DNA from: Escherichia coli
GTDB lineage: Bacteria > Pseudomonadota > Gammaproteobacteria > Enterobacterales > Enterobacteriaceae
Assembly (NCBI RefSeq): GCF_024700885.2
Contig: NZ_CP117016.1
Length of the DNA stretch: 64,000 nt
Strand: one strand, 5' to 3'
A program made the position numbers. This document shows positions 1 to 21,000 of this stretch, in pieces (the first letter of the stretch is position 1; every line of letters begins with the position of its first letter).

Positions 1-3000
1 TCATGACGGGCATCAGCACGAAAAGGGAGGTGGCGCTCAGCTCAAGGAACAATACGCCGACGCTGGGTTCGACATGTTGCCAGATCATGCAACATGGCCT
101 GATGGAGGTAATGCGGTCGAACCCGGGATAGCAGAGATACGCGACATGATGCTCGACGGTCGTTTCAAGGTATTTAACACCTGCGAGCCATTCTTTGAAG
201 AGTTTCGCCTGTATCACCGCGATGAGAACGGGAAGATCGTCAAGCTAAACGACGACATCCTTTCTGCTGTTCGCTATGGCTACATGATGAGGCGTTTTGC
301 AATACAGATGCGAGACATCAAAGATCCTAAAGAGATTGATTACTCAAGCTACAACATACCTTGCGGAGTTGGATGATGGCTGATGATAGAAAGATGACTG
401 ACTGGCATCGCAAGGTGCTGTGCAACTTTGATAATGCCTGGTCAGCAACGCAGGATATGCGAGAGCAGATTATTGAGGCTCAACGTTTCGTCCGGGTGTC
501 CGGCGCACAGTGGGAAGGCAGCACAAACGCTGGTTACTCATTTGATGAAGGCAGGTTTGAGCATTACCCGCGTTTTGAACTGAATAAGATTGCCCGTGAA
601 TGTGATCGCATCATTGGCGAGTATCGACAGAATCGCATCAGCGTTAAATTCAGGCCGAAGGACGATAAGGCATCGGAAGCGTTAGCCGAAAAGATGAACG
701 GCAAATTCCGCGCTGACTATCAGGAAACATCCGGTGGCGAAGCGTGTGATAACGCATTTGATGATGCTGTAACGGGCGGATTCGGTTGTTTCCGCATGTG
801 TGCAGATTACGAAGATGAAATGGATCCGAGTAACGAGCAGCGACGCATCAGCCTTCTTCCTGTTTACGACCCAGCGACATGCGTTTTCTTCGATCAGGAC
901 AGCAAGCAATATGACCGCTCTGATGCTATGTGGGCTATGGAAATGTTCTCCATGACGCCTAAAGCGTTCGAGGCTGAATACCCTGATTCCATCGCGGCAA
1001 GCCTTCCTCGTGATGACACTGGTACTCAGTATGACTGGTCAACGCCCGATGCCATCTATGTTGGACGCTACTACGAAGTTCGCATAGAGAAGGTGAAGCT
1101 CACGGCGTGGCGCAATCCTGTCAGCGGAGAAACGGCAATCTATGATGAAGAGCAAATCAAAGATATTGTCGACGAGCTGACCGATGGTGCATTCGAACTG
1201 ATTGGCGAGCGAACGGTGAAGAAGCGCCGCGTTTATTGCGGTCTTCTGTCTGGCGCTGAATGGCTGGAAGAACCGAAGCGTATTCCGGGCGAACATATTC
1301 CTCTCATCCCGGTATATGGGCGTCGCTCATTTGTTGATAATCAGGAGCGAATAGAAGGCCACGCAGCAAAAGCGATGGATGCACAGCGTCTTGAGAACCT
1401 GATGGTTTCCATGATTGCAGATAACGCTACTCAGGCTGGCGGTGATGGCATTCCTATCGTGGATGTTGATTTCATTCCCGGTCCATTAATGAATCACTGG
1501 GCAGAGAGGAATAAGAAAAGACCTGCAGTTCTTCCCATGACCAGCAAGAAGGACAAAAACGGAACGGTCATTTCAGAGGCTCAGGTTGCTGGCTGGACAC
1601 CTCCGACACAAATGCCTCCTGCTCTTGCCGGGCTATTGCAGTACACCGGAACGGCTATTCAGCAAATTACAGGTGCGTCGCAGCTTGAGAACATGCCGAG
1701 CAACGTCGCTACCGATACCGTTGATAGCATCTTTAACCGGATGGACACGCAGTCCTATATCTACATGGACAACATGGCTAAATCCATGCGCCGTGCTGGC
1801 GTCGTGTGGCTTTCTATGGCTCGTGAAGTCTATGGCAGCGATACGCCAATGCGCATCGTTAATGAGGATGGAAGCGATGACGTGGCGCTGATGACTGGTG
1901 AAGTGGTTGACCGTCAGACAGGGCAGGTTATCGCGCTTAACGACCTTTCGCAGGGTAACTATGAAGTGACTGTCGATGTCGGTCAGTCGTTCGCTACTCG
2001 CCGTGATGCAACGGTTAAGTCGTTACTTTCCATGCTGGCACTTATCCCGCCAGGAACGCCGAAGCATGACCTTGTATCGTCGATGATTCTCGACAATATG
2101 GACGGCGAAGGGATGGACGACCTGAAAGAATACAACCGCAATCAGTTGCTTCTGTCTGGCGTTATCAAGCCGAGAACGCCTGAAGAACAGCAAATGGTTG
2201 AGCAGGCGAAACAACAACAGGCCAGTCAGCCAGATCCGGCTATGGTTGCTGCGCAAGGTCAGCTTCTTGCTGGTCAGGCTGAATTGCAGAAAGCGCAGAA
2301 CGAACAAGCAGCCATTCAGGTTAAAGCATTCCAGGCACAGACGGATGCTCAGGTTGCTGCGGCAAATGTTGTGAAAATCCTCGCATCTGCCGATAGCCAG
2401 CAAAAATCTGATATCCGTGAGGCGCTGAAACTGCTCGGACAGTTCCAGCAACAGCAAGGAGATAATGCCCGTGCTGATGCAGAGCTTGTCCTGAAAAGTC
2501 AGGCACAGGGCCATGCGCAGCGCATGGACATCAGCAGCATCCTGCAAAAATCAACTCAGCAACAACCACAGCAGTAATTAACCCATAACGTGCAATGGCT
2601 GTCTTTATGAGGCCTGGCACCCTATTGCCTTCCGATGGGCTGAACATCGAGTAAACAGGGGTAACAAATGGACCAGATGGCAGAAAACAAACCAGAAGTT
2701 GAAATCGAAACCGACGCGTCAGAGCAGATTCCTGATGATGTCGAACTGGCTGAAGAAGTCGAAACAGAAGATGGCAGTGAGTCCTCTGGCAATTATGCAG
2801 AGGAAGCTACTGAAACTGATGACGACGAATCAGAACAGGAATTCTACTTTGGTGACGAAAAGCTGGATTCGCCAACCAGCGAAGATAGCGCAGAGCATGG
2901 ACTGGTAAAACACCTGCGCAAGACGATTAAAGAGAAAGACCGTGAGCTGAAAGAGCTGATGCGTCAGTCTCAGAAACCCGTCGAGCAGCAGCCGGTAATC

Positions 3001-18000: not shown

Positions 18001-21000
18001 AGGGCAACAACACAAGCCGCCCGTTATGATGCAAAGAATACGTTACGGAATGTAACTTTTCATGTTAGTGAAAAAGGTGATACCGGTATTTATGACTTTA
18101 CCAATGCTCAATGGATATTTAAATCTCCCTTATCAACATCTTCATATTCGTATATCGGTCAGTCAGCGGAGGTTAATGGCTATATAAGTGCTAATAAAGA
18201 TAATACGTCATCATGTGGGACATCATCTAAACGGTGGACGCAAGTATATGCAACTAATGGGGCAATAAATACTTCAGACCAGACATTGAAAACAAAGCCA
18301 CTGACAGTAGAGCAACTTTCAGAAATCATGGAGGTGGATCAGGATGCAATTCTTGACGCATGGGGTGACGTAAATATTATCGTTTACCAGTGGTTGTCCG
18401 ATATTAAGGCTAAAGGTTCGGATACTGCTCGTTGGCATTTCGGAGCAATTGCACAGCAGGTAAGAGATGCGTTTCTTGCAAAGGGGATAGATGGAACAAG
18501 ATTTGGCTTGCTATGTCATGATAAATGGGATGATGAGTACCAACCTGTAATGGCACAGCGCAAGGTGTCATTTATAGCTAAATCCCCTGAAGGGGAAGAC
18601 ATCGTTCGCGAATACTTTGAAGAATACGATACTGGTGACACGGAACTGGTTGTACATGCTGGTGAGCGTTGGGGATTGCGTCCAGATGAATGTTTGTGGT
18701 TGGAGGCTGCATTCCAGCGAAGAAGGTGTGAACGCATTGAGTCTCGTTTAACAGAGCTTGAATTGATAATTAAAAAAGCAAAAGAGATAGAGTAGATGGA
18801 TAAAACCCCAATTCATCACGCACTTTGCGCTGTGGTCGCACAGGTACTGGTTGGTCTTTTTACCGGAAACTGGGCTTACGGTGCGATAGCCGGTTGTACG
18901 TTCTTCATTGCTCGTGAACACACCCAGGCAGAATATCGCTGGATTGAAATGTTCGGGCATGGCAAGCGGATTAACATGCCGTGGTGGGGCGGTTTTGATC
19001 CGCGTGCATGGGATGTGGCAAGCCTGATGGATTTTTCTTTCCCAATTATCGGATGCTTATTGGTATGGATTCTTGCATCGTAGTTAACACAGAGTTACCT
19101 ATGAGACAAAACTAAGGTACACAAAGCTTTGCACTGGATTGCAAGGCTTTGTTCTTCTCTGGAGTGTGACATGTTTTTATGACAAAAAATTAGCGCAAGA
19201 AGACAAAAAATCACCTTGCGCTAATGCTCTGTTACAGGTCACTAATACTATCTAAGTGGTTGATTCATAGTGACTGGATATGTTGTGTTTTGTAGCATTA
19301 TGTAGTCTATTTTTTAGACCAAAGATATTGTAACACATTGATATTAATGGATTTTAATGTTTCACGTTCAGCTTTTTTATACTAACTTGAGCGAAACGGG
19401 AAGGTAAAAAGACAAAAAGTTGTTTTTAATACCTTTAAGTGATACCAGATGGCATAGCGCCATCTGGCAGAGTGATTAACTAAACATCGCAGTAATCGAG
19501 GCGCTTGCCAGAGAATGGAAATGGACGTTAAACCCGACCATCGCGCCGCTGGCACCTTCATCGACATCAATACGTTCTACATCCAGCGCGTGAACGGTAA
19601 AAATGTAGCGATGGGTTTCGCCTTTCGGCGGCGCTGCACCATCGTACCCGGTTTTACCAAAGTCGGTACGCGTCTGCAAAACGCCGTCTGGCATTGCTAC
19701 CAGACCAGAGCCAAACCCTTGCGGTAATACGCGGGTATCCGCGGGTAAATTAACAACTACCCAGTGCCACCAGCCGGAGCCAGTTGGCGCATCCGGGTCG
19801 TAGCAGGTGACAACAAAACTTTTCGTTCCCACAGGAACATCATCCCACGCCAGATGCGGTGAAATATTATCGCCATCGTAACCCATGCCGTTAAAGACAT
19901 GACGATGCGGCAACTTATCGCCATCGCGCAGATCATTACTGATGAGTTTCATGAACCCTCCTTTCTAGTTTGCAGAAAGTGTAGCCAGAAACCCTCACGC
20001 TGACTTCCCGTTATTGGCAAAAAAATGTTTCATCCTGCACCGCACGATTAACCGCTGCGGTCAGACGCTGCAACTGTTGCGGGAGAATAATATAGGGCGG
20101 CATCAGGTAAATCAGTTTGCCAAAAGGCCGGATCCAGACACCCTGTTCGACAAAGAATTTTTGCAGCGCTGCCATATTCACCGGACGAGTGGTTTCGACC
20201 ACGCCGATTGCCCCCAGTACGCGCACATCGGCAACCATTTCGGCGTCACAGGCGGGGGCAAGTTGCTCGCGTAGCTGCCCTTCAATAGCCGCCACCTGAT
20301 GCTGCCAGTCGCCAGATTCGAGAATCGCCAGGCTGGCGTTTGCTGCTGCGCAGGCCAGCGGATTGCCCATAAAAGTTGGCCCATGCATAAAGCAGCCGGC
20401 TTCGCCGTTACTGATGGTTTCCGCAACCTCGCGCGTGGTGAGCGTGGCGGAAAGGGTCATTGTGCCGCCGGTTAAGGCTTTACCGAGACATAAAATATCC
20501 GGCGCGATTTCTGCATGTTCACAGGCAAACAGTTTGCCGGTACGACCAAATCCGGTGGCGATCTCGTCGGCAATCAGCAAGATACCTTCGCGATCGCACA
20601 TTTTGCGGATTCGTTTTAACCATTCCGGATGGTACATGCGCATCCCGCCTGCGCCCTGGACAATCGGTTCAATGATCACCGCCGCGATTTCATGACGATG
20701 CGCCGCCATCAGGCGGGCAAAGCCCACCATATCGCGCTCATCCCATTCGCCATCCATGCGGCTTTGCGGGGCGGGAGCAAACAAGTTTTCTGGCAGATAG
20801 CCTTTCCACAGGCTGTGCATTGAGTTGTCCGGATCGCACACCGACATCGCGCCAAAGGTATCGCCATGATAACCATTGCGGAAGGTCAGAAAACGCTGGC
20901 GCGCTTCGCCTTTGGCCTGCCAGTACTGCAACGCCATTTTCATCGCCACTTCTACCGCTACGGAGCCGGAGTCCGCGAGAAAAACGCATTCCAGCGGTTG

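Follow-up and report, generated by a model that had tools for sequence, protein, structure and literature searches.

The 64,000-nucleotide stretch of Escherichia coli contig NZ_CP117016.1 (assembly GCF_024700885.2) analyzed here, referred to throughout as the window, opens within a prophage whose right end lies next to the host genes ybhB and bioA. Sequence comparison indicates that this is very probably a single, apparently intact, P22-like (Lederbergvirus) lambdoid prophage which entered the classical lambda attB through site-specific recombination of the lambda type. In sequence, it combines a lambda int-xis-attP module with head, tail-machine and ejection genes of the type carried by phages CUS-3 and JEP4, an immI region of P22 type and a tailspike of modular build. 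An earlier, sequence-only reading of the window had proposed a hybrid between a lambda-type int/att module and a P22-type morphogenesis cassette, and this proposal was borne out by the presence of int, xis and attL upstream of the window and by virion genes which follow the P22 order. The unusualness which that reading implied for such a hybrid was not borne out; the type is common and has already been described.

The window holds only part of the prophage, and its source was located in a complete genome. E. coli MLI114 (NZ_CP117013.1; isolated from human stool, Mali) was the one complete genome which matched a 7.5-kb stretch spanning the prophage end at 100% and over its full length, and the 22,397 bp of overlap compared between the window and the MLI114 record were identical base for base. 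The window is thus identical to MLI114 sequence, and the DNA upstream of it could be read from the MLI114 record. Measured from core to core, the prophage is 41,025 bp in length (41.0 kb, against 41.7 kb for the P22 genome), with 21,639 bp lying upstream of window position 1 and the right 47% occupying positions 1-19385. With respect to the span of 1-19385 first proposed for the prophage, the right end was correctly placed at the core, which stops at 19385, while the left edge proved to be the window boundary only. The prophage is flanked in the host chromosome by ybhC on one side and by ybhB-bioA on the other. Annotation of the MLI114 record by the Prokaryotic Genome Annotation Pipeline (PGAP) gave one set of lambdoid modules between the cores, comprising int, xis, a RecT/kil/N early-left region, a repressor with S24 and helix-turn-helix (HTH) domains, cro and cII homologues, replication genes, the nin region, Q, two tRNAs, lysis, terminase and virion genes, immI and the tailspike. 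A partial NinF gene was the sole pseudogene.

At the right end, the lambda core GCTTTTTTATACTAA is present at 19371-19385 on the + strand as an exact 15-mer which occurs once in the window (0.03 chance matches expected), and CTTGAGCGAAACGGG follows directly on its 3' side at attR. The last 270 bp through the core aligned with lambda 27471-27738 at 88% identity. Lambda homology on this side begins only 255 bp before the core, at a point 33 bp past a 95-codon open reading frame (ORF) which follows the tailspike gene, and in the interval from the tailspike gene to the P arm neither annotation nor lambda alignment gave any DNA from the b region or tail of lambda beyond this 270-bp arm. Within the arm, both arm-type Int sites (P1 and P2) are conserved, the X1 region is lambda-like save for one base and the tI terminator keeps the lambda sequence. 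Folding of the int-strand RNA at tI produced a hairpin with a trailing U-run (-34.2 kcal/mol, z=-3.5), and the sib-region hairpin upstream of tI is common to the MLI114 prophage and lambda. The right end was therefore confirmed as a lambda-like P arm which terminates in the lambda core and is fused to the bacterial arm beside ybhB-bioA, as had been described.

An exact copy of the core, representing attL, lies 41,010 bp upstream of attR in the MLI114 record, between int and ybhC. The integrase encoded beside attL is 356 amino acids in length, is identical to lambda Int at 350 of these positions, retains all six catalytic residues (R212, K235, H308, R311, H333 and Y342) and matches the Pfam families Arm-DNA-bind_1 (E=7e-33) and Phage_integrase (E=2e-40). 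The xis gene is located upstream of int and overlaps it as in lambda, and its product is identical to lambda Xis at 71 of 72 residues (Pfam Exc, E=3.9e-41); the small ORF next after xis encodes a product identical to its lambda counterpart (orf55) at 51 of 55 residues. The 110 bp of P' arm which were compared were identical to lambda. When attP was rebuilt from the two prophage ends it matched lambda 27471-29361 at 96.3% over 1,895 bp, and attB rebuilt from the outer flanks corresponded to the empty site of K-12 MG1655, with 0 mismatches within 84 bp on either side of the core and 4 mismatches in 315 bp overall. Both the lambda-type integrase and the matching attL core which the sequence-only reading had anticipated at the left end were thus present. 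No match to P22 Int or Xis was obtained at E<=1e-5 when these proteins were compared with the prophage by tblastn, and the presence of a hidden P22-type integrase elsewhere in the prophage was rejected on this result.

The virion genes, which occupy 1-12479 and 16210-18795 of the window, lie in P22 order and encode proteins with Pfam P22-family domains, which confirmed the order reported before. According to PGAP the large terminase gene continues upstream of the window, and the small subunit is 82% identical to that of P22. At about 334-390 a mosaic junction falls on a gene boundary, where the P22-type large terminase gives way to a CUS-3-type portal, and from there the DNA of the portal, coat and gp4 genes is 94-96% identical to both CUS-3 and JEP4. 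Similarity to the P22 proteins themselves, which had been claimed for several termini, held for the head-binding domain of the tailspike, where amino acids 1-113 are 70% identical to amino acids 1-113 of P22 gp9. It did not hold to the same degree for the portal (35%) or gp4 (41%), and the tail needle with a gp26-like N-terminus carries an Sf6-type knob. P22 gp14 and gp16 gave no tblastn match at E<=1e-5; the third ejection gene had a strong match to phrog_6704 and a weaker one to phrog_770 (DNA transfer protein). From the P22-type terminase, with its subunits at 82% and 92% identity, a short-tailed podovirus particle with headful (pac) packaging would be predicted.

The tailspike combines the P22-type head-binding domain with a chaperone domain (Peptidase_S74) at the C-terminus which resembles that of K1F endosialidase, and a weak match to an endosialidase N-terminal extension was also recorded. 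Its matches in the PDB were 7sg7, 8tvr and 3gw6, with the Sf6 and P22 tailspikes among them, while the body of about 500 amino acids, which forms the central receptor-binding part, is without a close solved relative. Near-identical copies of the tailspike (99%) were observed in prophages at other loci of other E. coli genomes.

In the immI region the divergent mnt-arc control region is 98% identical to P22. The description of immI as intact, with mnt, arc, ant, Oarc and Omnt, was right, with the qualification that the center base of Omnt is flipped, and the sar antisense RNA is also full-length, terminating one base before the ant ATG at 14923. Relative to P22, the alignment breaks at a 227-bp insertion (14631-14857) which carries an additional 73-codon ORF between arc and sar. 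The ATG of this ORF and the stop codon of arc overlap, and co-translation as part of the arc-ant operon is therefore probable; the ORF had no match in Pfam, NCBIfam or PADLOC. The resident repressor, with Pfam Peptidase_S24 and HTH domains, is 55% identical to P22 C2, and it would be the expected target of inactivation by Ant.

For the mosaic map, the full 41,025-bp prophage was aligned to Escherichia phage JEP4 (MT740315.1, Lederbergvirus), CUS-3 (CP000711.1), Salmonella phage P22 (AF217253.1) and lambda (NC_001416.1). JEP4 shared 18.3 kb at a mean identity of 95%, from terminase to tail needle and in int-xis-attP, and CUS-3 shared 14.5 kb (mean 93%) from portal to tail needle. The P22 share was 10.3 kb (mean 85%), made up of terminase, gp10, immI, nin genes and gene 23 (Q), and that of lambda was 5.9 kb (mean 95%), in int-xis-attP, ninB, Q and S-R-Rz. 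The MLI114 prophage does not correspond to any phage already named, since no record in the phage collection covered at least 80% of either of its halves; this reflects only the usual mosaicism.

JEP4 DNA is 95.7% identical from small terminase to tail needle and 98% identical in the int-xis-attP module, where the P-arm allele is the same; the tailspike head-binding domain is 98% identical and a related 95-amino-acid ORF precedes attP. In contrast, JEP4 is without the arc-ant operon and carries c2-like repressor, Rha, KilA and mnt genes in that region; it also differs in the receptor-binding part of the tailspike, in the early-left, immunity and replication genes, and in having no sib-region hairpin upstream of tI. 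CUS-3 resembles the MLI114 prophage in the block from portal to tail needle (95.4% identical), in having mnt and ant, and in a tailspike design which joins a P22 head-binding domain to a C-terminal endosialidase-type chaperone domain, whereas its integrase and att core (by record annotation), its terminase and its K1-specific tailspike body are different. CUS-3 integrates at argW, and P22 at the thrW tRNA gene. P22 has the same gene order from terminase to tailspike, conserved immI proteins, operators and sar, and large terminase and gp10 proteins which are 92% and 93% identical. However, its int and xis are without detectable sequence similarity, its portal, coat and gp4 proteins are only 29-41% identical, and it has sieA and gtrABC where the MLI114 prophage has a cassette encoding a PIN-domain protein and the 95-amino-acid ORF, respectively. 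With respect to lambda, the shared sib/tI-attP-int-xis-orf55 block corresponds to 27471-29361 (97.6% on the int side, 88% for the P arm), identity is 95-97.5% in Q and in the lysis genes S-R-Rz, and the attB is the same, but the lambda head, tail and b-region genes are absent and only 5.9 of 41 kb is shared.

The combination of lambda int/att with a P22-like virion is not new, and the MLI114 prophage is a further example of such a mosaic. JEP4, Huey (PQ850609.1) and vB_EcoP-720R6 all match the window through the core at 19385, their virion genes being P22-like and followed by a P arm of lambda type, and in JEP4 and Huey the integrase gene is found just past the core in a position matching that of MLI114 int. 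Huey, a P22-like podophage whose int and xis genes are correspondingly placed and whose attP allele is the same, is without immI, has a tailspike annotated with colanic acid degradation activity and aligns with no more than 38% of the prophage part inside the window and 44% of the part upstream; it is a Lederbergvirus of the BASEL project which forms turbid, lysogen-type plaques on K-12 (PMC11990801). For the P22-like podophage phiHS3, which was compared by its published description, integration upstream of ybhC, induction by mitomycin and lateral transduction have been demonstrated (bioRxiv 10.64898/2026.05.19.726188). Lateral transduction has also been described for Gally, a P22-like prophage of LF82 (PMC9928086), and Bobay et al. 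2013 reported the lambda site as an integration hotspot and P22-like prophages at five E. coli sites (PMC3603311).

Among complete E. coli genomes, 28 carried the stretch made up of the 95-amino-acid ORF, P arm, core and B' arm at a coverage of at least 80%, and a gene for a tailspike or head-binding domain adjoined ybhB-bioA in about 20 of the best 25 matching genomes listed. A rough estimate, made from 40 evenly spaced rows sampled from the ranked genome matches (13 of which were positive), suggests that about one third of complete E. coli genomes may have some prophage with a lambda-type P arm at the lambda attB. That lambdoid phages trade modules for integration, immunity and the virion has long been established, laboratory lambda-P22 hybrids included.

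Several points weigh against the view that the MLI114 prophage is intact and operates as lambda and P22 do. The partial NinF pseudogene in the nin region is adjoined by an HNH endonuclease gene, and about 20 substitutions relative to lambda are found in the P arm between P2 and the core (window 19290-19365), which is the X2/Fis/H2 segment of lambda. As this diverged segment is paired with a nearly identical Xis, excision control could differ. In addition, ant expression could be altered by the 73-codon ORF inserted after arc, and induction, excision and virion production of the MLI114 prophage are inferred. The pseudogene beside the inserted endonuclease gene and the diverged P arm would both fit a prophage which is single and correctly bounded but defective (cryptic), being incapable of excision or of producing infectious particles, with att and immI surviving as recent relics. 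This was judged unlikely, since all other modules are annotated as intact ORFs, the catalytic residues of Int are preserved and the length from core to core is near that of the P22 genome. Moreover, a four-way alignment with lambda placed the same diverged X2/F/H2 allele in JEP4 and Huey, and the turbid plaques of Huey argue that this allele is compatible with function. The segment appears to be a distinct natural variant of lambda attP, and it is a smaller possibility that its pairing with a near-unchanged Xis may alter excision control in this att lineage.

The unequal similarity of the two att-proximal parts to lambda, 88% in the P arm against 97.6% on the int-xis-P' side, could suggest separate histories, as would follow if a P22-like prophage without an integration module of its own lay against a degraded lambda remnant which supplied the P arm and core at attR. 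Such a remnant was rejected, and the presence of two elements is considered highly improbable: lambda homology on the right side amounts to only 270 bp with no lambda tail or b-region genes there, P22-type Int and Xis are absent by tblastn, each module is single-copy between the cores, and the outer flanks rebuild attB precisely. In JEP4, an isolated phage with the same arrangement of tailspike, 95-amino-acid ORF, P arm and int, the ORF and the P-arm allele are contiguous with int as one attP, and Huey has the same allele. The position taken at the outset, that the P arm forms one unit with int and is not left over from a separate lambda prophage, was upheld by these comparisons. An assembly chimera, in which a contig of a P22-like phage had been joined to a lambda attB region, would also create the observed junction; this is hardly credible, as the window matches a closed chromosome exactly and the 28 genomes which share the stretch across the junction are independent, and a tailspike or head-binding-domain gene adjoins ybhB-bioA in the approximately 20 genomes noted above.

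For a single prophage integrated by lambda-type recombination, a sequence of events can be proposed from established lambda Int/Xis and P22 immI biology, and not from the sequence directly. Int together with host IHF would carry out recombination between attP of the phage and attB at the 15-bp core and thereby produce attL (B-O-P', beside int) and attR (P-O-B', 19371-19385). In the free phage tI and sib would lie downstream of int and down-regulate it, while in the prophage they would be separated from int. Within the lysogen, Mnt bound at Omnt would hold the arc-ant promoter off; on infection or loss of Mnt, Ant would be produced, and Arc at Oarc and the sar antisense RNA would then keep it in check. 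Excision would be expected to follow SOS cleavage of the LexA-family (S24) repressor, with Int and Xis acting on attL and attR. P22-like phages package DNA by a headful mechanism, rightward from a pac site, and packaging from an unexcised prophage at this position would therefore run through attR and carry the bio-uvrB-moa DNA which fills the rest of the window, that is, lateral transduction, which has been reported for P22, Gally and phiHS3.

For basic knowledge these findings are of little consequence, as P22-like phages with lambda int/att are already available as sequenced isolates, one of which was shown to integrate by ybhC. They do indicate that a prophage at the lambda attB cannot be presumed to be lambda-like. 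The attB of MLI114 is occupied, which is relevant to integration tools based on lambda Int, and if packaging precedes excision, high-frequency transduction of the bio-uvrB-moa side would be expected of a pac-type P22-like prophage located here. The features of the window which relate to the prophage and its right flank are collected in Table 1.

Table 1. Prophage features and adjoining host genes in the window, with the evidence for each.
Feature	Position	Strand	Evidence
Terminase large subunit 3' end (P22 gene 2 type), cut by window start	1..376	+	tblastn with gp2, 92% identity, amino acids 1-485, ends at 334
Portal, CUS-3 type	376..2577	+	Pfam P22_portal E=1.4e-169; 35% (protein) to P22 gp1; 95.4% (DNA) to CUS-3
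Scaffolding protein	2668..3561	+	phrog_648 E=1.9e-118; PGAP
Major coat protein	3580..4833	+	Pfam P22_CoatProtein E=5.9e-76; 29% (protein) to P22 gp5
gp4-type tail accessory (head-completion) protein	5044..5505	+	Pfam P22_Tail-4 E=7e-41; 41% to P22 gp4
gp10-type DNA stabilization/tail hub	5515..6933	+	Pfam Phage_stabilise E=5.6e-301; 93% to P22 gp10
Tail needle, gp26-like N-terminus and Sf6-type knob	6933..7886	+	54% to gp26 amino acids 1-138; Phage_tail_NK E=1.2e-106
gp14-position head morphogenesis protein (DUF2824)	7886..8365	+	phrog_651 E=5.4e-74; PGAP DUF2824
Three ejection (DNA transfer) genes, gp7/gp20/gp16 positions	8340..12479	+	Pfam P22_gp7, Inj_translocase; third by phrog
Accessory cassette in P22 sieA slot	12476..14089	-	Small ORF, 182-amino-acid PIN-domain protein, 239-amino-acid protein
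mnt repressor gene	14139..14393	-	80% to P22 Mnt; Pfam Arc and Repressor_Mnt
Oarc	14421-14441		Identical to P22 (mnt-arc intergenic alignment)
Omnt	14451-14467		Only center base G to C against P22; the opposite strand reads as the P22 17-mer
arc repressor gene	14484..14642	+	90% to P22 Arc; Pfam Arc E=1.7e-27
Extra 73-codon ORF between arc and sar/ant	14639..14860	+	phrog_11805 E=4.5e-52; start overlaps arc stop
sar antisense RNA	14856..14922	-	Rfam RF00262, 83.6 bits against gathering threshold 43, E=1.4e-16, full length
ant antirepressor gene	14923..15825	+	85% to P22 Ant, all 300 amino acids; Pfam P22_AR_N and P22_AR_C
Tailspike	16210..18795	+	Pfam Head_binding E=4.2e-61 (amino acids 1-113); Peptidase_S74 E=4e-10
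95-amino-acid hydrophobic ORF between tailspike gene and attP	18796..19083	+	phrog_1443 E=1e-54
Lambda-type attP P arm	19116..19370		88% identity to lambda 27471-27723
tI terminator	19183-19225	int strand	Lambda sequence kept
Arm-type Int site P1	about 19235-19246		Conserved against lambda
Arm-type Int site P2	about 19267-19277		Conserved against lambda
Lambda att core, crossover region of attR	19371..19385	+	Exact 15-mer; identical copy at attL
Bacterial B' arm and intergenic DNA up to ybhB	19386..19475		Same as K-12 MG1655 attB for 84 bp right of core
ybhB	19476-19952	-	Annotation
bioA	20011-21300	-	Annotation

The tailspike body and the cassette in the slot of P22 sieA are the only parts of the prophage with unexplored biology. 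In the cassette, the 239-amino-acid gene is upstream of the PIN gene and the two overlap (12831-14089, - strand), while the small ORF was counted as 96 amino acids in the ORF listing and 75 in PGAP. The cassette genes were assigned to phrog_7294, phrog_21691 and phrog_19868. The 182-amino-acid protein matched Pfam PIN (E=4e-10), and its VapC-like matches in NCBIfam were all sub-threshold. No recognized domain was found in the 239-amino-acid protein with Pfam or NCBIfam, a PDB sequence search returned chance-level matches only (E>=0.09), and an AlphaFold2 single-sequence model was unusable (mean predicted local distance difference test score 41, predicted template modeling score 0.26). The five accessory ORFs gave no defense-system match with PADLOC, and a known defense system in the sieA slot was rejected on this result and on the sub-threshold nature of the VapC-like matches. 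The cassette was present in 32 complete E. coli genomes at a coverage of at least 80%, and in a P22-like prophage of E. coli TW14425 it occupies the same slot, between a gp16-type gene and mnt. The 239-amino-acid and PIN pair might tentatively be put forward as a candidate for an undescribed prophage system of superinfection exclusion or abortive infection, although this is doubtful.

The 95-amino-acid ORF, which occupies the position held in P22 by the O-antigen conversion genes gtrABC, has 89% nucleotide identity to its counterpart behind the tailspike gene of JEP4, and relatives at about 90-93% identity were seen at other sites in many E. coli genomes. In the upstream record, at 29309-30024 in the nin region, the HNH endonuclease gene lies between an intact NinF gene and the partial NinF pseudogene, an arrangement which looks like a homing-endonuclease insertion with target duplication. 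Also upstream, at 27163-27318 of the record, the prophage tRNA-Thr and tRNA-Asn genes are situated between the Q antiterminator and holin genes. Elsewhere in the window and unrelated to the prophage, the dinG-rhlE interval (44015-48017) contains a gene annotated as type III secretion effector EspX2 and, adjacent to it, a gene for a 561-amino-acid hypothetical protein.

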